Below are positions 770 to 47,545 of a stretch of DNA of 64,000 bases, in pieces. The stretch lies in NCBI RefSeq assembly GCF_004010195.1, contig NC_057755.1, forward strand, positions 8,607,320 to 8,671,319, given 5' to 3'. A program made the translations under genes and the position numbers. Source of the stretch: Chiloscyllium plagiosum (lineage: Eukaryota). Below the pieces are notes generated by a model, which did not search any database, was not told where the DNA came from, and saw only the letters and a program-made list of their open reading frames with translations. The stretch's first letter is position 1, and each line of letters begins with the position of its first letter.

Positions 770-3560
770 AGTTCAACCCCAGGTTGCTATTTATATTGAT
801 GAAGTACTAATAACAGGAAAGCCAATAAATAGTACTTAAAGAAGTAGAACATAGTGCTTAAATGTTTCTCCAAGGCAGGTGTACACCTTGGAAGGGAGTA
901 GTGTGCGTTCCAGGCAGCACAAGTGATCTATCTGGGCTGCAGAGTGACAAAAAAACACATTCCACCCGCTGGAAGATAAAGTGAAGGCAATCAAACATGT
1001 TCGGACTCTAACATCTGCACTGGACTTTAGGTCTTTCCTTGGTTTGGTGAACTGTTACTGGAAATTCATATGTAATGTGGTCTCCATCTTGGCACCCTTA
1101 CATCTGCTTTTAACTAAGGGTCAGTTTTGGAACTAGTCACATAGCCAAGACGTAGCCTTTTGGGAAGGTAAAAACAGTTATCATCATCTGGGGTGTTGAC
1201 CCAGTACGATCCGAAGCAAGTGGTGGTGCTGACATGGGATGCTTCCCCGTATGATATTGGGTTGCTGTTGGTGGTGGGTCACTGGTGGCCCAACAGTGAG
1301 GAATGTCCGATACCATACGCTTCCCGGATTTTGGCTCATATAGAGAAGGACCATTCGACGGTAATCTTTGGTGTGGGAAAGATCCACCAATACCTTGAGA
1401 AATGTAAACTTGTAAGAATAAAGGTCAACAAACCCCTGCTGGGGTTACCTAAGAAAAGGAAAGACCATGTCGCCCATAGCATCTGATCAAATTCAGCAGT
1501 GGCCCTTATTCTCAATTATAACTTGGAAGAACGTGGGGTGGATCAGTGGCTCACTGGTTAGCACTGCTGCCTCGCTGTGTCAGGGACCCGCGTTCGATTC
1601 CAACCTCGGGCATGAAGTATTCACATTCTCCCTGTGTCTTTGTGTGTTTCCTTTGGATGCTCCGGTTTCTTCCCACAGTCCAAAGATGTGCGGGCCATGC
1701 TCAATTGCCCAAAGTGATAGGTGCAATATTCGTGTGTAGGCAAAAGGGTCTGGGTGGGTTACTCGTTGGAGGGTCGATGTGGCCTTGTTGGGCCGAAGGG
1801 CCTGTTTCCGCACTGTAGGGATTCTAATCTAATTGTCGGGAAGACCAAGTGACAAATGTGGATGCCGTCTCCCACTAATAGATATACCATTGATTGTGCA
1901 TTCCCTGGTAGAGTCTGTTCTGATTTTAAACTTTCTGGACCACATTCGGGTCACTCCTGGCAATATCCGACTGTGCAAACAAAAAGCTTCCACCTTGGCA
2001 AAATGAAAAGAGCTGGTGGTGAAAGGGGAAACAGAAGAACATCACCATCAGAAGTGAGACCTTTCTGGACCAACGAAGCCAACATCACAGTAGAGGACAG
2101 CACATTATTAGGGGTTGTGTGAATAAAGGTGGCCTGAGTCACTGTCTGATCTCTATCAGAGACATCCATCGGTTTCCAAAATGAAAACTTTGGCATGAAG
2201 CTGTATGTTTAGTGTTTAGGATTGAATGCGAACAAAGTTACGTTGGTGGAGCTTTGCCCAGAGTGCCAACAAGTGCAAGAATTACCGCCAAGTGTTCCCC
2301 TACCTTCGGGTGAATGACAGGTTGAACGTTGGAGTGGGTTACACCTCGATCGTGTTGGTCCATGCATGGGCTCAATGTTCTTGGCTATTGTGGATACCCA
2401 TTCAAAGTATTTGGACGTGCAAAATGTTAATTTGTCAAACTCAGGGATGACAATTGAAAAGCTGCGAGCAACATTCATGATTCATGGAAAATGGGATGTC
2501 ATTTTCCAGCAGGGATTGCCAGTATTTCCTGACATCGAAAAGCATTCGGCATGCTCAGGCACCTCTTTAATATCCATCGTCCAATGGTCTGGTAGAAAGA
2601 ACAGTCCAAACATTGAAGGAAGGTTTTAAAAAAACAACAATCAACAGTTTCACTGGAAACTAAACTGTCCCGGGTCCTGTTTGATTATTGGACCACCCCT
2701 CACACAACAACAGGGATAGTTGCAGCAGAGTTGCTAGTGGGGAGAAGATGCTGCACCAGGTTAAACCTGATACTCCATGGCCTTGGAGGAGGCTGAAACA
2801 TGATCAGGCACACCGATACCAGTCACATGCCTCCTCTAAGAGAAAGAGATAGTTTACTTCAGGGGATGAAGTTTGGTATCGAAACCACAGCAACGGCCCT
2901 GGATGAGTACGAGGTGAGGTCAGTGTGATGTCAGCTCCCATGACTTATAAAGTTTGGGTAAATGAGGCTGTCCTGAACAAATATGTCGATCACATGAAAG
3001 CTTCTCCTTTGAAAACGAGGCAGGATTAATACATACCTGTACCCCCTCAGAACAACCACAAAGTCTTTGGGAACTGTGGGTTCTCCCCCTCCAAATAAGA
3101 TCAAAGAAACCTCCAAGTCTGAGATGGATGCAGCCGCAATACCGTTACCACCTGAAGAAGAGGAAGAAACTCTCCCAAAATGCTCTGGGCACAAAAGTCA
3201 TGCCCCAGTACAGTGCACATTGCCCACGTCAGTATAAGAGTCGAAGGAACCAGATCTGGAGTGAAAATGTCCAAGGAGAATATGTAAGAAAATCAACAGG
3301 GTTTCGTCCCTTAACTTCGAGGAGTGAGCAATATAGTGAATGGAATGATGTTGACCCAGCTGGATCACATTGACTATGAGTCCCCTGATTGGGGCTGTTA
3401 ATCTGGGCCTTTCAGTGAGCCCTGGCTGACCGAGATAAACAGGAGTCTCAGAGTCTCCTCACTGAAGGAATGGCTCTGAAATAGTTCCTCAGATTCTGCA
3501 GATTGTCCTTCTGTAAATAAAGGGTGAGTTGGCAACAAGATAATGGCTTTTATGCAGTTT
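770..3560 (+). mobile_element. Degenerate Gypsy/Ty3 LTR retrotransposon (family A): RT-RNaseH-integrase remnant plus 3' LTR (~3332-3560)
   Basis: YIDEVLITG (YxDD-like), WDASPYDIG (RNaseH) and MGSMFLAIVDTHSKY (integrase), with many stops and frameshifts. LTR has an unoccupied ATAAACAGGAG at 3435-3445 and aataaagggtga. Confidence 0.85.
1545..1832 (+). mobile_element. HE1/V-SINE-type tRNA-derived SINE
   Basis: tggttagcactgctgcctc A-box head, gttcgattcc B-box, ctccggtttc core and ctaatcta tail. Inserted in Gypsy pol. Confidence 0.85.
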
Positions 3561-31804: not shown

Positions 31805-33381
31805 ATAGGGAAAAGCCGAGGCAGAAATCGGAGGCTGGAAAGGGAAGGAATCATTAACCCAGGAGAGTCTGCAGAATCAACAGCACTGCACGTACTGATT
31901 GTTAAACCTAATTGGCCTTTTGCCATTTGAGGATTTTAAACAATCTGTACACCAATTCTCACAGCTAGATAAATATCTAATCCCTCATTATAGAGGACAG
32001 CATTTTATTATGGAGAACAAGAGGGATTGTTCCGAGTAAAGTAGTCTAACTGATATTGGTTGAATACCAGCAGGGTTATCCAGGGCTGTCCAAAATGAAG
32101 ATGTTGGAGTGAAGTTACGTCTGATGGCCAGGATTGGATGCCAACATGGCCACGTTGGTGGGACAGTGCTCAGTGCTCATATGGATAAACATTATTTGCA
32201 GCAGGCACCCCCAACCCCCACCCCACCCCCACACTCCTGCAAACGGCTGGGTAAACCCTGGATTAGTTTACACATGGACTATATCGGCCCTTTCATGAGC
32301 TTAATGTTCTTGGTTATTGTGGATGTCCATTGAAAGTGGTTGGACCTGCATTGAATTCATTTTGTAAACTACGTGATGATGATTTAGTGGCTGTGAACAT
32401 CATCCATGATATACTGACTCCTGGAAGTACTGGTCACAGACAAGAGCATGTCATTTTCCAGCAGTGTTTTCCAGTTTTTCCTGACCTCAAGTATCATTCG
32501 GCATGTTCAGACAGCTCCATGCTATCCACCATCGAATAGTCTGGTAAAAAGAGCAGTTCAAGCATTGAAGGCAGGTTTAAAGAAACAGCCAACAGCTTCA
32601 CTCGATACCAAACTGTCCCGGGTCCTGTTCGATTATAGGACCATCCCTCACAAAACAACAGAACTAGCTCCAACAGAGTTGTTAATGGGGAGAAGATGCT
32701 GCACCAAGGTTAAACCTGATATTCCCAGACCTGGGAGAGGGTGAAACAGCATCAGGAGCACCAATACCAGATAAATGTCTCCTCTAATCGAGAGAGACAG
32801 TTAACTTGAGGAAACGAAGGTCGGTGTCGAAACAACAGAAATGGCGATGCATGGGTAAAAGATAAGGCTATTGTGACGTTTGATTCCAAAACTTACATGG
32901 TTTCGTAAGTGAAGCGTCCCTGAACAAGAAGGTAGATCATATGAAAGCTGCTCCGTTGCACACTTGGCTGGAGCAATGCATACCTGGCTCCTCAGAACAG
33001 CCAGATAGTCTAACAGAAACCGTGGGCTCTTCCCTCTGCTTAGCGAAGAAGACACCTTCCAGTCTGAGATGGATGCAGCCTCGAAACCGTTACCAACAAA
33101 TAAGAAGAGGAAAGTCTCCCGTGACACTCTGGGGGCAAGAGACTGGTTACAGTCCAGTATACATCACCCCATGGCCGGTTCAGAGTCAGAGAAACAAGAC
33201 CTGGGGTAAAAGTATGCGAGGGAAGCTACAAGAGAATGAACAGGCGTGCATCCCTGACTTGGTCGGGGAGTAATGTCGTCATTGAAACAAGGGCCTGGTG
33301 GATCACTGACGATGTGAGCCTTGACTAGGGCTGTTAACCTGGTCTAATCAGGGAGCCCTGGCTGACAGAGTTAAACAGGAG
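31805..33381 (+). mobile_element. Gypsy family-A pol remnant plus 5' half of the 3' LTR (~33272-33381)
   Basis: KPWISLHMDYIGPFM, TAPCYPPSNSLVKRAVQ and LFDYRTIPHKTT integrase motifs; PPT ggggag. Confidence 0.85.
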
Positions 33382-35000: not shown

Positions 35001-35905
35001 TTATTGGCACAATTTAATAATTCGAGTAAATGGATATTTTACTCCATTGATAAATTCCTCTCTGAATTTAGTTTGTGTTAGAGCGTATATGCAAGTGTTG
35101 GTGCACGAACTCAGAAGCTGTAGCATGAATCCAATTTCTTGAAAGACAAATATTGCATCATTCAATGTCTTGTCTTTATAATTATAATTTGTTATTTGCC
35201 AGTTGAAAGAGTGTAGGACATATGTCATCCACAACAGTACAAAATTAGCAGACAATGCAAAGAGCAAGATGATGGATTTTCTCCTGTTTACCACCTCTGG
35301 ATCACTATTATTCTGTCCATTTCCGTGGATCTGGAGGCGACAGCGGATGCGGTTAGATGTCATAATATTCCTGACAGTCAGAGCATTGAATATTAAAATC
35401 AATACAATTGGAAGCAATGGTGTAATTATACTGTCAAACCATTCATACACATTCCAGAATAATGATGTATAATAGGCTGATTTAAAGATGCAAAACCATG
35501 GTATATTGTCAATAACAAACGAAGGAATAATTGCAAAATACCAAGCACTTGATTTCAAACAGCTGACCACACTCACAGTTACTATAACCACAAATGCCAT
35601 TCTCGCATTGCAATATCTTGCTCTTAGTTTCTGGCAACAAATTGCTACAAACCGATCAAATGTGAAAGCAACTGTGAACCAAACTGAACAGTCTCGGGTT
35701 GCAATGAACATTGCAAGTCTCAAGGTACACACAGGAGTGATGGATAAAAAAGTAACTGGGAAATAAAGATTGTTAATTCGGTGCAGTAAGACATTAAAGA
35801 TGACGAGAAGCAGGTCTGCTGTAGACATTGCCAACAAATAGCGAGTGACGCATTTGGAGAGCCCACAATTGCCTCGATTCAGAATCACAATTCCCACCAA
35901 GTTAA
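35001..35905 (-). CDS. Coding exon 2 of an intact GPR139/GPR142-like class A GPCR (probable G-protein coupled receptor 139-like; 324 aa with exon 1 at 51086-51155)
   Basis: Open 905-nt exon with pyrimidine tract and cag|TT acceptor in phase with exon 1 (GII-V-NLVGIVIL). Hydrophobic TM segments, AMSTADLL (TM2), TFDRFVAIC (DRY-like), PLLPIVLILIFN (TM5), SCTNTCIY (NPxxY-like) and KFREE (helix 8). TAA at 35001-35003. Confidence 0.93.
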
Positions 35906-37446
35906 CTGTAAGAAAAATCAAAAAATGCACACTTCCTCACGATTAGAATCACAGCAAAATCATCAGCATAATATATCTGAAAAATCAGACCAATTGCCTC
36001 AGATTAATATGTTAACTCAATTACACGATGCACAGTGAAAAAGTTATATTGGAATTACAGACTCAAGCAAACCAGAATGAAATAAAGACACGCTGGGAAA
36101 AAAATAGAGAAGCAGAGTAAATCAACAAATAAGCGAGAATAAGAACCATAAAAGAAAAAATGAAATATTTTAATGCAAGTAGGTCATGCTAACAGACTCA
36201 TTGAAATATTGCTACAAAATATTGTAGCAGACTTTTCATACTTATTAAACTGGTAATGGAAGAAAAAAATCAAATCAAAATGTTAATAAGGACAAGATAT
36301 TTTCCATCAATGGACCTGATCGGGAACTGAGTATGAACAATCACAACAGTATACTTTTTTATGAAGTAAAACTGAGATGGTTGAATATGAAGTCTGAATT
36401 GTTGGATTGAGGTGTCACTGAATTGGGTCCCATGCTTTCTCATGTATGCTAGTCACAAATCTGTAGGGTCTGTTAATGAGGGGAGGTAGACCTCAGAGTT
36501 GGGGAGACATAGGAGCATGTGAGAATCAATAGGGAACTTAGTGAATGTGGTTCTTTATCATAACAGTAATACTGTAATTGGAAGGTGTGATTACAACCTG
36601 CTTGATTAGCATCACATCTACAAAAGTATCCACCTCATCTACAACCAAAACGCAGGGCCAGCAGTGTGTACTATCTCCAAACTTCGCTGCAGAAATTCAC
36701 CAAGGATTAACATAAAGCAATAGCCACACTCCGATTCCATACACAAGTACAGGATGTCTGATACACGGTAACACCACCACGTGCAAGTTCCCTTGAAGAC
36801 ATCACCATCCTGACTTGGAAATACATCACCGTTCCTTCACTATTGCTGGGTCACAATCATGGAGCTCCCTGCACCAGGCCATTGTGGGTAACCCCACAGC
36901 AAGCAGCACAGCGGTTCAAGAAAGTGCCACCATCTTCTCAAGGGGCAACTAGGAATGGGCAATACATACAAATCTGGCAGCTCACATCCCATTCATGAAT
37001 GAGAAAAAAAGGATCAGTCAGATTTCAAAATTCATTCGAATATGCCAATTACTGTTCAGATCACTTGCGTTTACAAGGTTAAATTTTGTAGAGTGATATG
37101 GACAGTGGTATTGGGAAAGAATGACGAAATGAATCACTCAGCACCCGGCGTGTTTAATATGCGACACTGGTGTGAGGAAACATCTGGCGTTCAGGAAGCT
37201 TCTTCACTGAACAAAGGAAAGGCGTATATGTTTATACATTCATTTCATCCCACCATTATAGAACGATCATGTTAATAATTTCGAACATGCACAACTAATC
37301 TGATTACTTATGTGGCTGTCAGGTCAGTGATGGAAAGCGTTGTAGTCAGCCTTTGGTCTTCTATGAAGTCATGATGTTTCCCAGACACACCTATCTCTAT
37401 CCTTGGAGCTTTCGCAGTGAGTACTGTATATAACCACATTTCAATA

Positions 37447-38490: not shown

Positions 38491-39262
38491 TGAAGACATG
38501 TACTGTACCTTAAAGATAGAGGGAATGCTGAACTGAACTGAGAGATTACAAGCAACTGTATGTAAGTTCAGATGGCAGTGTCAGAGTGCCCTAGAAAATT
38601 GAAAATTTGTAACATTTGGCTGTAAAATGAATCCTGAGTTTTGGTTCATGTTTTCAGAGCAAATCAAATTTAACCAAAGGCTAATTTAACGTTTTAAGTT
38701 ATGCCCCCGCATACTAAAATTCAATTGAGTTTACATTTATTGTTTTGCCAACATTGAACCAATGAGACCATCCAATGTTGGCATGATGTAAAAATGCAGA
38801 CATGTTGAAAATTGTTCAGAGATCAACTGCCACACAGAGAAACTACTGGAGAGCGAATTTCCCATCTAACATCTTGTTCTCCAAAGAAATAGAAAACACA
38901 CTCTTTCAATGGTACGTTTTCACGTGAAACATACTCGCAGTAAAAAGAAAGAAGAAGACCTGGAGAGAACATCAGCTGGAAGAGTGAAGACACAGAAGAG
39001 GACAAAGATCGTGTGGTTTTGAAATTAAATTGATGTACCTTTAATGAGTGTCTTTTTGGAACAGCGTATTGTCATAGAGTTTTTATAAAAGCATATTTTT
39101 GTAGAGTAAGATGTTCAGAGAAAAGAGGGCTTAGATTTGTGAAACGTTTACTGAATTTTGGGAGTTCTCTGTCACCCATATTTTAACATATTGCCAGGCA
39201 AGTCAAGCTGTTCTGTATGATTCGTTGAATTACCAGTGGGTTTCAATCTTTGTGTCATAACA
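38491..39262. mobile_element. Probable solo LTR of a third family
   Basis: TG...ATAACA termini and no ORF. Absent from the paralogous position at ~6560. Confidence 0.55.
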
Positions 39263-39417
39263 CATTCCAATTCTTAATCAACTGCAAGCCACTTTATACC
39301 ATCTTAATAGCGATGGGAACACGGTGAGCCAGGGACATCTCACAGAATATGAGTTTCCTGATTGGAGCTATTGACGTGGTCCAATCAGTGACCCCGGCTG
39401 ACTGATATAAACAGGAG

Positions 39418-41843
39418 ACACGTTAGAGCCCGGGTGTCCTTGGAGAAGGAGCACGCGGTGTCCACCAACACCCTGGAGTTGTTCAGGGAGAGGTGGGCGC
39501 CGCAGGGAGTGGAGTGCATCATTTCTCCCTCCAATTCTATTTTGATTTAGTCCCTACCCTCCCCTTCACTGTTTTGATCACACAGCACTGCCCTTTGATG
39601 TGAAGGGCAGTGCTTGTCACTGGCCACCCGGGTGTTTTCCTATCTTCCTGGTGGTGGAATTTGAATAAAGATTCGTGCACTTTGTGTCTTTCACTGTGTC
39701 TCGCACCTGCGCACACACACACCAAAAAAAAAATACAGGAGATACGTTAGAGCCCGGGTGTCCTTGGAGAAGGAGCACGCGGTGTCGACCAACACCCTGG
39801 AGTTGTTCAGGCAGAGGTGGGCGCTGCAGGGAGTGGAGTGCATCACTTCTCCCTCCAACTCTATTTTGATTTAGTCCCTCCCCTCCCCTTCACTGTTTTG
39901 ATCACACAGCACTGCCCTTTGATGTGAAGGGCAGTGCTTGTCACTGGCCACCCGGGTGTTTTCCTATCTTCCTGGTGGTGGAATTTGAATAAAGATTTGT
40001 GCACTTTGTGTCTTTCACTGTGTCTCACACCTGCTCACACACACACACCATGGATGCTGGGGAAAAAAAAATAAGCACTACCGCACTTAGAAAGAAAAAA
40101 AAATAAAAAATAAATTAATAAACAGGAGATTTGGTTACGTTAGGGCCCTGGTGTCCTTGGAGAAGGAGCACGCGGTGTCCACCAACACCCTGGAGTTTTC
40201 AGGGAGAGGTGGGCGCCGCAGGGAGTGGAGTGCATCATTTCTCCCTCCAACTCTATTTTGATTTAGTCCCTACCCTCCCCCTCACTGTTTTGATCACACA
40301 GCACTGCCCTTTGATGTGAAGGGCAGTGTTTGTCACTGGCCACCCGGGTGTTTTCCTTTCTTCCTGACAAAAAAAAAGATAAACAGGAGATTTGGTTACG
40401 TTAGGGTCCGGGTGTCCTTGGAGAAGGAGCACGCGGTATCCACCAACATCCTGGAGTTGTTCAGGGAGAGGTGGGCGCCGCAGGGAGTGGAGTGCATCAT
40501 TTCCCCGTCCAACTCTATTTTGATTTAGTCTCTACCCTCCCTTTCACTGTTTTGATCACACAGCAATGCCCTTGGATGAGAAGGGCAGTGTTTGTCACTG
40601 GCCACCCAGGTGTTTTCCTATCTTCCTGGTAGTGGAAATTGAATAAAAAATTCGTGAACTTTGTGTCTTTCACTGTGTTTCACACGAAAAAAAAAGAAAA
40701 AAAATTTAAAAAAATATTTTAAAAATAAACAGGAGATTTGGTTACGTTAGGGCCCGGGTGTCCTTGGAGAAGGTGCACGCGGTGTCCACCAACACCCTGG
40801 AGTTGTTCAGGGAGAGGTTAGCGCTGCAGGGAGTGGAGTGCATCATTTCTCCCTCCAACTCTATTTTGATTTAGTCCCTCCCCTCCCCTTCACTGTTTTG
40901 ATCACACAGCACTGCCCTTTGATGAAAAAAGAAAATAAAAAATAAACAGGAGACTTGGTTACGTTAGGGCCCAGGTGTCCTTGGAGAAGGAGCACGCGGC
41001 GTCCACCAACACCCTGGAGTTGTTCAGGGAGAGGTGGGCCCTGCAGGGAGTGGAGTGCATTATTTCTCCCTCCAGCTCTATTTTGATTTAGTCCCTACCC
41101 TCCCCTTCACTGTTTTGATCACACTTTGATGTGAAGGGCAGTGCTTGTCACTGGCCACCCGGGTGTTTTCCTATCTTCCTGGTGGTGGAATTTGAATAAA
41201 GATTCGTGCCCTTTGTGTCTTTCACTGTGTCTCACACGTATACACACACACCATGGGTGCTGGGGATAAAATAAGCACTACCGCACTTAGGTGGTAGTGT
41301 GGGGTATAATTAAAAAAATAAAAAAATAAACAGGAGATTTAAACCTCCTCCTCTGCTAATAGAAGAAAAAATAAACAGGAGATTTGGTTACGTTAGGACC
41401 CTGGTGTCCTTGGAGAAGGAGCACGCGGTGTCCACCAACACCCTGGAGTTGTTCAGGGAGAGGTGGGTACCGCAGGGAATGGAGTGCATTATTTCTCCCT
41501 TCAACTCTATTTTGATTTAGTCCCTACACTCCCCTTCACTGTTTTGATCACACAGCACTGCCCTTTGATGTGAAGGGCAGTGCTTGTCACTGGCCACCCG
41601 GGTGTTTTCCTATCTTCCTGGTGGTGAAAATTGAATAAAGATTCGTGCACTTTGTGTCTCTCACTGTGTCTCACCCCTACACACATACACCATGAGTGCT
41701 GGGGAAAAAAATAAGCACTACCGCAATTAGGTGGTAGTGTGGGGGTAATAAAAAAAAGAAAAAAACGAAAAAAGAAAAAGAAAAGAAATAGACAGGAGAT
41801 CCCCCTCCAACTCTATTTTAAAAAAAAAACAAATAAACAGGAG
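39418..41843 (+). mobile_element. Tandem array of seven Tx1-like LINE 3'-end copies plus two micro-inserts, each ending in A-tail + ATAAACAGGAG
   Basis: Units start at 39418, 39742, 40129, 40390, 40736, 40953, (41337), 41382 and (41799). They encode VR(A/V)RVSLEKEHAVSTN(T/I)LELFRERWAPQGVECIISPSNSILI*, which resembles a Tx1 ORF2 C-terminus. Confidence 0.8.
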
Positions 41844-44800
41844 ATTCAGAGTCTCCTCAGTTTCGGAGACTGACTCTGTGCTGTTTGGTGCTACAGTTAG
41901 TTTCTGCTTCCCTTCTTTTCTGGAAGGGGGAAACCTGACTTCTGAACTAGCAGAATTATTTAGCCAGTTTGTTAACTGGCATTCCTTTTAGTGAGGACTG
42001 ATTGTGAAACTCCTAGTGCACATAATGTGTTTCAGGTGGAACTCAGTTCTCATTAGGGGGTTGTTGTCTCACTGGCTGGTTACAGTCTGTGTGTTACTCT
42101 TTTTACTATTTACTTTTTGAGAAAAGGACAATGTGGATTTTATGGTGGGGAGTAGCCCTTGGACTCAAGTTTTCTTTGTTTTTTGTATGTATCCTCACTG
42201 TTTTTGGTGTTTGGACCGAGCCTTCGTGGAAGACATACATTTTACCAGAGGAGCTGTTCCTGTGGGGAGGCCTAGCCCTGGGACTGGGCCACTGAAGATT
42301 GAACACCTGTGTGTGTGCTGGGATGTGAGCAGTTGCTGTATCTTGGAGTCTGGCAGCAGAACTTTCCTTCAGGAGTGGACCATACCCCTGTGAGTTAACT
42401 GAACCTGGACTATGTTCCTGTGAGTGGGCCTGGTTTTCCAAGGCTGGGCCAGGACTCCATGGAGACTGAACACTTGTATGTTGTGCATTTGCTGCCTTCA
42501 GGATTGGACTCTGCCCTTGGTTGCGGACTTTGATTTTACCAACGGACTCTGCAGTTTGGAGCGGACTCTATTTCCAACAATGTACATCGTATACTGGAGT
42601 GGACTCTTCCTAGAAATTGATTCTATATTTTGAAGACTGTATAGATTTGGACTGTGTACCAGAAAGGACTCTGGTTTTTATTTTTTGGTAATTAACTGTA
42701 TTGTCGTGTTTCCTGGGTCTATCACCTGCACTGTCTAGTGTGTCCCTGGGTCTGGCAGGCCTTACTGTGAACTGGGAGGCTCATGGGTCGTCATGAAAGC
42801 TGTCACCCCGAGAGCCGGAGGGCGGGTAGGCCATCCTGTGAACGTGAAGGTTGGTAGGCTCTCTCGAAAGCCGGAGGGTAGGTAGGCTTCCCTGATGCCA
42901 GTCACCCTGAGAGCCAGAGGGTGGGTAGGCCGTTCTGAGCGCTGTTGTCCCGAGAAGGGGTAATCGGGACGGGCTGCTGTAGAGGTGGTCGAAAGGTGTC
43001 AGAGCAGCCGAGCTAGAAGGGGCGTAGGGGCGGGCTGAGATCCGGAAGGCTTGTGGGCTACCCTGCACGCTGTCGTCCCAGGGAGGGGGACGGGCTGTCC
43101 TAGAGGTGGTCGAAAGGTGTGCCAGGATAGCCCACTGGCCGGATGGCACATCGGGATGAGTGAGAGCCCAATGGTAACGTAGGTGCAGGCCGAGAGCCAG
43201 AAGGTGGGTAGCCGTTCTCAGCGCTGTCACCCCGGGCAGGTACTGGGGCGGGCTGTCCTACAGGTGGTCGAAAGGTGCTGAGGGTGGTTAGTGAAGCCGG
43301 AAGGTGGGTAGGCCGTCCTGACCGCTGTCACCCCGGGAGGGTACCAGGGCGGGCTGTCCTAGAGGTGGTCGAAAGGTGTGTCAGGTTCGACCGAGGTCTG
43401 GAAGGGGCATGGGGTGGACCGAGAGCTGGAAGGTGTGTAGGGACGGGCTGCAGTTGAGTGGTCGGAAGGTGGGAGGGACAGAGGCTTGCTGGGTCTGTAT
43501 TGTATGCATCTTTTTATGTAACTGGATTGTCCTTTTATGTACAAATGTCATTGTCACTGTCTTTTATATGTGGAACTGGGATTTGAGGTTTGTCCACATC
43601 TCCCTGAAAACTGGTTGAACGGTAGGGTTTGGGGCCTAGATTTGCTGCTCCTCTCCCTTGTAAAATTGCTGTTGTATACAGCTGTGAATGTTAACTGTTT
43701 TTTATAAACTGTTTTGTAACTGTTTAATAAAATAAAGAAATAAACTGGAACAAAAATTAACAGGAGTTTCAGAGGTCTTCTCAGTTTATGGGGCTGACTC
43801 TATGCTGGCTGGTGTTACAGTCAGTGTGTTACTGTTGGTTTCTGCTTCTTTTTTTGGAGGGGGAAACCTGATTCCTGAACTAGCAGAATTATTTAGCCAG
43901 TTTGTTGACTGGTATTTCTGTTAGTGAGGACTGATTATTAAACTCCTGATGCACATAATGTGTTTCAGGTGTAACTCAGTTCTCATTAGGGGGTTGTTGT
44001 TTCACTGGCTGGTTACAGCCTGTGTGTTACTCTTTTCTCTTCTACTTTTTGAGGAAAGGGCAATGTTAATTTTGTGGTAGGGCTTAGCCTTGGACTCTAG
44101 TTTCCTTTTTTTTGTATGTATCCTGACGGTTTTTGGTGTTTGGACTGAGCCCTTGTGGAAGACATATTTTACCAGATGAGCTGTTCCTGTGGGGAGGCCG
44201 AGTCCTGGGACTGGGCCTCTGAAGATTGAACACCTGTGTGTGTGCTGGGAGGTGAGCAGTTGTTGTATCCAGGAGTTTTGGAGAAGACCTTTCGTTCAGT
44301 AGTGGACCAAACCCCTGTGAGTTAACTGCACCTGTACTATGTACTGTGTTCCTGTGAGTGGGCTTGGCTCTCCAAGGCTGGACCAGGACTCCATCGAGAC
44401 TGAACACCTGTGTTATGTGGGGTGTGCATTTGCTGTCTCCAGGAGTGGACTCTGCCTTTGGTTGCGGACTGTTTTTAGCAACGGACTCTGCAGTTTGGAG
44501 CGGATTCTAATTCTGACATTGCACATTGTATACTGGAGTGGGCTCCTCCTGGAAATGGATTCCATATCTTGAAGACTGTATCGATTTGGACTGTGTACCA
44601 GAAAGGACTGTTTTTTTGGTAGCTAACTGTATTGTGGTGTTTCCTGTGTCTATCACCCGCACTGTCTTGCGTGTCCCTGTGTCTGGCAGGCCTTGCTGTG
44701 AGCTGGGAGACTCATGGTTCGTTCTGAAAGCTGTCACCCCGAGAGCCGGAGGGTGGGTAGGCCATCCTGTGAACCTAAAGGTTGGTAGGCTGTCCTGAAA

Positions 44801-46462
44801 GCCGGAGGGTGGGTAGGCCACCCTGATGCCAGTCGCCCCGAAAGCCAGATGGTGGGTAGGCCGTTCTGAGCACTCTCATCCCGAGAAGGGGTAATCGGGA
44901 CGGTCGGTCCTAGAGGTGGTCGAAAGGTGGGAGGGGCAGGGGCTTGCTGGGTCTGTATTGTCTGCACTTTTGTATGTACCAGTATTGTCTCATGTACAAA
45001 TGTCATTTTCACTGTCTTATCGTATGTCGAACTGGGATTTGAGGTTTGTCCTCATCTCCCTGTAAAATGGTTGAACGTTAGGTTTTGGGGCCTGGCTTTG
45101 CTGCTCCTCTCCCTTGTAAAATTGCTGTCTCATGTGTACAGCTGTAAATGTATTTTGGAAACTGTTTTGTAATTTGTTTAATAAAATAAAAAAAGTAAAA
45201 AGGAGATTCAGAGTCTCCTCAGTTTAGGAGACTGACTCTGTGCTGGCTGGTGCTGCAGTCAGTGTGGTACTGTTAGTTTCTGCTTCCCTTCTTTTCTGGA
45301 AGGGGGAAACTGATTTCTGAACTGGCTGAATTATTTAGCCAGTTTGTGAATTGGCATTCCTGTCAGTGAGGACTGATTGTTAAACCCCCGATACACATAA
45401 TGTGCTTCAGGTGTAACTCAGTTCTCATTAGGGGGTTGCTGTTTCACTGGCTGGATACAGCTTGTGTGTTACTCTTTTCTCTTTCTGAAAAAAGGACAAT
45501 GTTTATTTTGTGGTAGGGCATAGCCCTTGGACTGTAGTTTTCTTTGTTTTTTGTATGTGTCTTCACTTTTTATTGGTGTTTTGACTGAGCCCTGTGGAAA
45601 GCATACATTTTACCAGAGGAGCTGTTCCTGTGGGGAGGCCTAGTCCTGTGTGTGTGCTGGGAGGTGAGTACTTACTGTATCCTGGAGTTTGGGAGAAGAC
45701 CTTGCCTTCAGGAGTGGACCAAAACCCCTGTGAGTTAACTGCACCTGAACAATGTACTATGTTCCTGTGAGTGGGCCTGGTTTTTCAAGGATGGGCCAGG
45801 ACTCCATGGAGACTGAACACCTGTGTGCTGTGGGGTGTGCATTTGCTGCCTTCAGGAGTGGACTCTGCAGTTTGGAGTGGACTCCATTTTGGATAATGCA
45901 CCACAAAAACTGGAGTAGACCGTTTTTGTGAGAATGGACTCTACATTTCGAAGTCTCTACATCTGGACTCTGCGGACCAGCAAGGACTCTGTGTTTTTTT
46001 GTTAATTAACTGTGTATTGTGGTGTTTGTTGGGTCTATCACCTGCACTGTCTTGCGTGTCCCTGGGTCTGGCAGGCCTTACTGTATTGTATGCACTTTTT
46101 TATGTAACTGGATTGTCCTTTTACGTACAAATGTCATTGTCACTGTCTTTTATATGTGAAAGTGGGATTTGAGGTTTCTCCTCATCACCTTGTAAACTGG
46201 TTGAACGGTAAGGTTTGGGGCCTGGCTTTGCTGCTCCTCTCCCTTGTTAAATTGCTGTTTTGTGCGGCTGTAAATGTTAACTGTTTTTTATAAACTGTTT
46301 TATAATTTGTTTAATAAAATTTAAAAAAAAACACGTGTTTCAGAAGTCTTCTCAGTTTAGGGGACTGACTATGTGCTGGCTGAGCACAGTGTGTTGCTAT
46401 TGTAGTTGGTTTCGGCTCCATTTTTTGGTGGTGGGGAAACCTGTTAAAAATAATAAACAGGA
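41844..46462 (+). mobile_element. Four tandem copies of a non-coding, A-tailed element with an LTR-derived 5' leader (element B)
   Basis: Units 41844-43766, 43767-45205, 45206-46337 and 46338-46462. The first three end in aataaa + A-rich tail + degenerate acaggag. They carry a variable internal GC-rich repeat. Confidence 0.75.
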
Positions 46463-46634
46463 AGCTGAGGATTTCAGTCCACGCTGAGAGCTGGCTCCAA
46501 GGAAACCGAACCATGCGATGTCTGATGCATGCGTAAATAAAGGGTGAATTACTGATGGGTCCATGATCCAAGTACTGGCGTTCTTTAAACTGTTTCCTGG
46601 TGTGAAACATCTTATTTTTACGTTGCTTTTCAAT

Positions 46635-47545
46635 CATAGAGTCATACCACAGAGTAACAGAAATCTCAGGCCAAATTGGCCATGCCAACTGGGTTTCCCA
46701 AATTAAGGTAGTCCTATTTTCAGGCGAATTACCAGTTTCCCTCTGAACCTTTCCTGTCCATGTACCCGCGTAAATGTCTTTTAAATATTTGAACTGTTCC
46801 TGCATCCACCACTTTCTCTGGCTATTCATTCCACATATGAACCACCCTCTATATGGTAAACCTGCCCCGCAGTTCTCTTTTAAATCTTTCTCCTTTCTCT
46901 TTAAAATGATGGGCTCCTGTTTTGAGTGCCCCTCCCCCCAACACCTAAGAGAAAATACCTTTATTATTCGCCTTACCCTTTGTATTTAGGATTTTCTAAC
47001 CTCTATAATGTTACCCCTCAGTCTCTTATGCTGGAGAAAAAATAGCCCCAGACTATTCTGCCTATCCTTATGACTCATACTCTCCAGACCTACAACATAC
47101 TGTTAATTTTCAACTGAAACCAAAGTAATACTATTCCTTGGATCGCAGATGACCAGGACTGTACACAGTATTCCAAAACTGGACTCACCCAACGTCCCGT
47201 ACAACCACAATATGACATCCAAATACTTGTACACTGTGATATGAGCTATGAAAGATTCCAAACGCCTTCTTTACTAGCCTGCATACTTGCGACATAGCAT
47301 GAAAACAACTATGTAACTGAACCTTGAGATCTCTCTGTTTGACAGCACTACCCAGTGTCCTTCCATGAACTACAAAAGCCCTTCCCTTCTTCATCTTACA
47401 AAAATGCAACACCTGGCAGTGATCTAAATTAATTTCCATCCGTCGCTCCTCAGCCAAGTGACCCAATTTATCACGATCCCTTTCCAATCTTAGATAACAC
47501 TCACAGTCTGCTATACAACCAATGCTGGTGCCATCTGCAAACTTC
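46635..47545 (-). mobile_element. CR1 LINE remnant
   Basis: RRMEINLDHCQVLHF and KQRDLKVQLH peptides plus 3' UTR. Confidence 0.85.

Follow-up and report, generated by a model that had tools for sequence, protein, structure and literature searches.

Stacked insertions of a shark Tx1-clade LINE repeat locus-private 5′ junctions and may take them from the resident copy

In the genome of Chiloscyllium plagiosum, copies of a Tx1-clade LINE are stacked in arrays in which neighbouring units often repeat a 5′ junction private to the locus, while each keeps a tail of its own; many units combine a local 5′ part with a foreign 3′ part, and those on the 5′ side of the arrays are the younger ones. We consider it moderately probable that a new cDNA, arriving at the 5′ target site duplication (TSD) of a stack, anneals to the DNA of the resident copy just downstream and inherits its junction.

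Results

An array of LINE pieces within a split LTR

The window, that is the whole stretch of 64,000 nucleotides analysed, holds at positions 39420–41744 seven head-to-tail 3′ pieces of a Tx1-clade LINE, and the stack as a whole is made up of these seven pieces, two mini-pieces and four non-coding passenger units, all on the plus strand and counted as they stand in the assembly. An A-rich tail and an identical target duplication close each unit. The insertion point is the TATA box of a solo LTR, presumably of the Gypsy type, which is split there: its 5′ half occupies 39305–39418 (start approximate), with CCAAT at 39381 and TATAAA at 39406, and the last TSD together with its 3′ half is found at 46453–46570 (end approximate), with AATAAA near 46536. 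The TATA box and the first TSD copy, at 39406–39419, recur before each unit.

Element coordinates are given with 0 as the canonical 3′ end and negative values for nucleotides upstream of it. Specifically, unit 1 (39420–39724) extends from −352 to −50, followed by A tail and TSD, unit 2 (39743–40090) from −353 to −14, unit 3 (40133–40366) from −356 to −122, unit 4 (40394–40685) from −356 to −66 and unit 5 (40740–40924) from −356 to −172, while unit 6 (40957–41304) and unit 7 (41386–41744, with the ORF2 C-terminus at 41386–41520) both run from −356 to the canonical end. The two mini-units, each cut at both ends and provided with its own tail and TSD, lie at 41340–41360 (from about −551, a near match to a reference copy) and 41801–41819 (from about −246). 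The array is then continued by passenger family B with unit 1 (41845–43735), which is non-coding and G/T-rich and has AATAAA and an A tail, the internally shorter units 2 (43768–45189) and 3 (45207–46320), and a 5′ fragment with a short tail (46338–46443).

All seven Tx1 units start within the last 45 codons of ORF2. The sequence-only reading of this DNA had placed five units at a single ORF2 point with two beside it, and this holds: five begin at −356 behind acaggaga(t/c)tt, the other two at −352 and −353. The seven places at which it saw A tails are also correct, but the last two are the canonical end, so that five are truncated, and its list of units lacked the mini-units at 41340 and 41801 and the family B continuation to 46450. 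Units 3–7 carry the same minor allele at 11 nt from the junction; the last two of them, 6 and 7, diverge after about 230 nt. Because units 1 and 2 start 3–4 nt off the others and differ at the marker 11 nt in, they may represent an independent hit.

Rfam returned a single match at chance level over 38500–47500, a tRNA search found none, and the 44-aa C-terminus encoded by the array had no Pfam match. Elsewhere in the window, an intronless rhodopsin-family GPCR frame lies on the minus strand at 35001–35936, 3.4 kb from the array (7tm_1, E 1.8e-15). The LTR TATA site is also present at 3439, 33375, 54809 and 59681, and those at 33375 and 54809 have behind them a diverged and older sequence related to the Tx1 3′ end.

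Repeated 5′ junctions and unique tails

A 24-mer taken from a unit has 3171 exact matches in the 3.56-Gb genome. The first 100 matches on one contig, in order of position, gave a sample of 82 loci with 236 units in 90 clusters, each locus having, by the way it was sampled, one unit that spans −298 to −275; a second sample consisted of the best-hit loci and comprised 21 arrays.

The main junction of the window array occurs exactly five times in the 3.56 Gb, all five in that array. A junction of their own is repeated in 22 of the 43 multi-unit arrays of the first sample (the other 21 are without one) and in 11 of the 21 arrays of the second. Counted by pairs, the 5′ junction is common to 73/461 within-array pairs as against 19/23,140 between-locus pairs, and four of these 19 turned out to lie in one array each; the per-array count of 22/43 is the fairer figure, because a single array, L097, supplies 28 of the 73 pairs. 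The repeated junctions map to many different positions, from −36 to −1115, and are found in 12/20 multi-unit arrays at the LTR and in 8/19 outside it. The LTR is not needed for junction repetition.

The tails behave differently: both samples and the window together contain 63 repeated 5′ junctions in 34 arrays versus four repeated tails in three arrays. Truncated 3′ ends, in turn, are repeated in 1/52 within-array pairs. Since each unit has its own tail, the units represent separate reverse-transcription or priming events rather than duplications of DNA, and the amplification through RNA proposed from the sequence alone is supported to that extent. A satellite growing by unequal crossing-over is expected to repeat junctions and tails jointly, which does not fit these counts.

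Chimeric units and polarity of the arrays

The 63 neighbouring same-junction pairs were compared at non-CpG subfamily markers, with matched pairs from other loci as controls. Markers differed at 22/270 sites (8%) within 100 nt of the junction and at 151/763 (20%) beyond, the corresponding control values being 1309/4018 (33%) and 4108/11,309 (36%); this contrast between near and far is weaker when CpG sites are counted. As the local match near the junction declines further on, many units are chimeras, and clean switches are seen in L050, L051, L145 and L046. Two observations argue against a resident-DNA template: the pairs of L039, L044 and L135 agree nearly throughout, as they would if made from local RNA, and the 20% discordance beyond 100 nt lies below the 36% background.

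The clearest chimera is the unit of L124. Its first 50 nt carry four rare alleles common to both old units of L123 and two more found in one of them; past this point, it is without the four rare alleles that the two L123 units have in common. The L123 units are located 14 kb downstream in the same array, with full-length elements between. Neighbours with different junctions are as divergent as controls (6–7%).

The arrays are younger at their 5′ side. The last unit is more diverged than the first in 34/47 arrays (Wilcoxon p = 2e-5), which places the resident copy downstream of the nick. Where both units of a pair have the same junction, 26/48 pairs have the younger unit on the left, 14 have the older one there and eight are ties (p = 0.08), by a divergence-based measure of age that also counts mutations of the source. 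Long duplications that are out of register occur in L102 and L143.

Ends of the family across loci

The fixed 5′ ends and variable 3′ ends of the window array had been taken for an inverted truncation pattern. As a trait of the family this was dropped: in the sample, 5′ starts differ widely between loci, with a range running from −27 to past −2200, and most tailed 3′ ends (110/171) lie at the canonical position, the other 61 being truncated. Templates cut at the 3′ side and then tailed, as the sequence-only reading supposed, do exist: 13/31 tailed solo copies are 3′-truncated. Truncated ends fall on A in 21/47 cases, more often than the 20% expected. The internal AATAAA at −108 was rejected as a source of short 3′ ends, which do not cluster there (13/64 ends in the interval assigned to it, p = 0.39). 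Around −355, independent starts are somewhat crowded.

Internal deletions are frequent in young copies (L077, L082, L086, L112, L124), suggesting that the reverse transcriptase may skip along its template. In L072, L109, L114 and L143, tiny tailed fragments form chains, each fragment behind a different foreign target duplication, which could be either nested 3′ transductions or end-to-end template jumps. In L045, where units start at −379, each unit is preceded by three to four copies of the target duplication itself, and a SINE-like insert separates units.

Identity of the element and of its target

By its closest protein hit and its domains, the element is assigned to the Tx1 clade of non-LTR retrotransposons. 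The best of 15 protein hits is the Xenopus Tx1 ORF2 (149 kDa protein; E 1e-150, 44% over 95% of 653 aa). The long copy L036 encodes a reverse transcriptase and a C-terminal zinc motif; RVT_1 and zf-RVT are weak and under the curated cut-offs in the partial frame, and the atlas hits give RVT_1 plus zf-RVT at 0.97. Full-length copies additionally have an APE endonuclease (Exo_endo_phos, 5.6e-7) and a putative ORF1, for which L152 offers a frame of 410 aa containing, on visual inspection, a CCHC-like motif; Pfam gives no match for ORF1. TSDs of 7–30 nt, mostly 12–18, accompany 23/32 solo copies, and the script found none in the other nine.

The target LTR is about 220 bp long, and its uninterrupted natural copies (L155–L174) have TG...CA ends. 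A polypurine tract precedes it in L168 and L022, integrase- or protease-like frames adjoin some copies, and a weak rve_3 match (E 0.0055) lies next to it; from its motifs we take the LTR to belong to the Gypsy superfamily. The LTR TATA site is a preferred target and not a strict one, being the location of 28/75 classifiable clusters, and a TATA-like motif is present at 12 of the 47 remaining non-LTR clusters versus 3.4% in the background. CCAAT lies near 13/47 non-LTR insertions, versus 8%. TATA-like motifs just before the insertion in the left flanks of L042, L078, L080, L089, L116, L119, L134 and L137 hint that insertions outside the LTR aim at promoter-like sites as well.

The 5′ ends of full-length copies and the passenger family

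In 28 of 30 5′ UTR loci (L205–L234), the start is formed by a piece of 3′ UTR from the element itself (23 by BLAST and five by eye, with one gap and one locus without it). The piece ends at about −126 to −145; the shortest starts near −151 and thus measures about 20 nt, the longest beyond −1500. Such 5′ ends carry a TART-like, non-terminal repeat of the 3′ UTR.

A second look at these extensions covered 40 loci of 10 kb (L235–L274). A twin of the extension was found behind the copy's own tail in L248, L258, L264 and L271 by string match and in L245 and L260 by inspection; overall, 7/37 extension strings were matched at up to three mismatches, against a null of 2%, two of the seven lying wholly inside element sequence. 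In L244, L261 and L273 twins are present upstream only. We had expected a downstream twin for every full-length 5′ extension, but 20/27 copies with a visible 3′ end have none, and most extensions therefore need another template, namely RNA. It is likely, then, that extensions come from two templates, resident DNA in a minority and RNA in most, with RNA acting either through a jump to the 3′ UTR of the TART kind or as a master transcript that bears the tag. The first bases of the 5′ UTR of full-length copies resemble the LTR downstream of its TATA box, and the element may borrow the LTR promoter.

Family B is non-coding, G/T-rich and up to 1.9 kb long, has 1414 hits of a 14-mer and was mobilised into the same TSD as the Tx1 units. 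Its full-length copies have one fixed start, where the sequence resembles the LTR 3′ half. Family B repeats junctions too, at both places with adjacent truncated copies among 30 sampled loci (L183/184 and L186/187); Tx1 RNA is therefore not needed for the effect.

Read-through products and RNA

Behind tails there are often pieces of the LTR 3′ half and target duplications that do not belong to the locus, so that read-through RNAs from arrays were likely retrotransposed; on this point, too, the sequence-only reading stands. In poly(A) single-cell reads of run X21, of which about 2% were used, 2135 reads cover the family 3′ end, strongly one-stranded and 3′-biased, and 56% of the aligned reads continue into unlike sequence. 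With another copy of the family as reference, run X22 gave no aligned reads, and the aligned RNA reads had no sharp starts or ends.

Discussion

A resident copy as template for the 5′ junction

In the mechanism that we favour, each new insertion would enter at the 5′ target duplication of an existing stack, and growth at this point would put a resident just downstream of the nick; the new cDNA is the complement of that copy's top strand. The cDNA would start on its own RNA, thereby keeping its own 3′ end and tail, and late in synthesis it would pair with the resident DNA as template; once the top strand is cut within the resident and the gap filled, a step that we infer, the observed products would result, the new unit taking over the resident 5′ junction. 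The chimeras and the polarity of the arrays would fit a templated insertion of the L1 type, by synthesis-dependent strand annealing (SDSA). Joining of the R1/R2 type was not found, as off-target arrays repeat their own local TSD and have no imported upstream tag. Homology-based template switching would also explain the variable 3′ UTR piece at the start of full-length copies. For an ordinary non-LTR site that was cut twice, our guess would be that a nick left unsealed was primed more than once during a single event.

Four other explanations were weighed against resident-DNA templating. An array transcript containing TSD and 5′ junction might be the whole or the final template, with target homology fixing the junction in the manner of co-transcribed rRNA in R1 and R2. 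It would gain from the read-through products (LTR pieces and foreign TSDs behind tails), from the 3′-biased presence of the family in poly(A) RNA, with more than half of the aligned X21 reads entering unlike sequence, from the same-junction pairs that agree over their whole length, and from a precedent in R1, as far as the cited part of that source goes (PMC2718515). Nevertheless, such RNA should seed identical junctions at distant loci and none were seen, which disfavours freely moving RNAs; junctions are also repeated outside the LTR, and the chimeras turn to local sequence only as synthesis ends. Moreover, the TSD of the first unit contains the TATA box, and by standard TATA spacing an LTR transcript should begin downstream of it. 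A nascent transcript kept at its locus could imitate the DNA route, but on the whole we regard templating by local RNA as unlikely. Homology thus appears to fix the 5′ junction, as the sequence-only reading had it, but the source that it named, read-through RNA with the upstream 11-mer, does not seem to be the main route, the junctions being locus-private and recurring outside the LTR (8/19) and many units matching their neighbour only near the junction. We give little credit to later gene conversion, by which units inserted with random 5′ ends would have been rewritten from a neighbour in tracts ending in the common TSD. The same 5′-local gradient would be expected, and different-junction units of one array have slightly more rare alleles in common than controls, but conversion must cross length differences while anchored by about 12 nt, does not agree with different-junction neighbours as divergent as controls or with tails that are not homogenised, and would have to account for L124 retaining the L123 junction despite the distance and the full-length elements between.

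The out-of-register joins of L102 and L143, together with a short left twin in L131, recall a long target duplication made without homology, in which a random top-strand cut falls in the resident, only an A tail or short cDNA is inserted and the 3′-truncated units are duplicated DNA. The longest unit should then be the rightmost one, whereas the right unit is shorter in L051, L097, L135, L114 and L103, which contradicts a pure giant-TSD model as the sole cause; solo copies are 3′-truncated too (13/31), and in-register chimeras require homology. We hold this explanation to be very improbable in its own right, and long target duplication is probably a minor branch of the resident-template mechanism. 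Deletions after tandem duplication or unequal crossing-over, or else microhomology hot spots of truncation, have next to no weight in our assessment: the four repeated tails in three arrays point to occasional occurrence, and independent starts are somewhat dense near −355, but tails should repeat as often as junctions (63 versus 4, which rules out unequal crossing-over as the main cause), truncated 3′ ends are almost never repeated within arrays, and hot spots do not agree with repeated junctions at so many positions. The sequence-only reading had named random 5′ ends and fixed 3′ ends genome-wide, with the array made by duplication and deletion, as the outcome that would speak against it; in the sample, 5′ ends are indeed random and 3′ ends mostly fixed, but the local pattern is not accounted for by duplication with deletion.

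Comparison with known systems

L1 is said to make templated or chimeric insertions by SDSA-like annealing, as Gilbert described in 2005. A more recent study describes 22 tumour cases in which L1 cDNA detaches from its RNA, anneals to homologous DNA close by and so duplicates it, with templates mostly below 250 bp and near the site (10.1101/2024.08.27.596794). Whereas such L1 insertions are rare by-products, in the shark about half of the multi-unit arrays are concerned, in the germ line. TART is a telomeric element of the jockey clade. The sections cited describe a non-terminal stretch of its 3′ UTR that is repeated at the 5′ end (PMC1636488, PMC5537684) and propose a jump from the 5′ to the 3′ repeat as the way to extend it (PMC1636488). 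Unlike telomeric TART, the element studied here is a Tx1 at LTR TATA boxes, with a shortest tag of about 20 nt.

R1 arrays in Drosophila grow by insertion into the 5′ TSD, according to the cited part of PMC2718515, and the excerpt used of 10.1101/158386 reports jockey double insertions in which dimers have a common TSD, distinct 5′ truncations being the hallmark in 6/10 dimers. Growth at the 5′ TSD is alike in the shark array, but separate insertions here have a common truncation point. In R1 and R2, homology of the cDNA 3′ end yields precise junctions, as stated in the passages cited (PMC2718515, PMC11371274); in those elements the homologous stretch is supplied by RNA and lies upstream of the nick, whereas here it would lie downstream, in the resident copy. 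The closest known counterparts are Tx1L of Xenopus laevis and the crocodilian Tx1-Mar, Tx1-8_Crp and Tx1-4_AMi with SINEU passengers, which are alike in targeting transposons and in their tandem passengers. The cited part of Kojima 2015 (PMC4494074) describes Tx1 families with other transposons as targets, among which are two LTR retrotransposons, and SINEU-3 copies in tandem with a common TSD. It does not mention 5′ junctions that are inherited and private to a locus, often-truncated 3′ ends or a 3′ UTR piece repeated at the 5′ end. A literature search outside subscription journals and Repbase did not bring up LINE arrays whose inherited 5′ junctions are private to the locus.

Meaning for the family

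In conclusion, we take the element for a member of the Tx1 clade whose way of joining its 5′ end likely differs from the known ones, Tx1 targeting of transposons and tandem passengers with a shared TSD being already known. Joining of the LINE 5′ end and the site of the second-strand cut are open questions, in the words of the part cited of PMC2881922; with 3171 exact 24-mer hits, this genome holds thousands of natural records of junctions likely inherited from a neighbour, and a resident template would make the sealing of the LINE front end testable. The working rule that a shared 5′ truncation means duplication and distinct ones separate insertion does not hold here, and the arrays offer a route to chimeric LINE subfamilies. 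If the mechanism is true, a homologous pad placed in advance downstream of the nick could set a precise 5′ junction in RNA-templated gene insertion. Only tentatively, and with more doubt than belief, we would go further and picture a vertebrate LINE with homology-guided template switching built in: its RNA would begin with a copy of about 20 nt of its own 3′ UTR, it would aim at TATA boxes with earlier copies as landing pads, and each locus would propagate its own 5′ junction, mix old and young subfamilies at each insertion, and turn truncated copies behind the LTR promoter into new sources of RNA.
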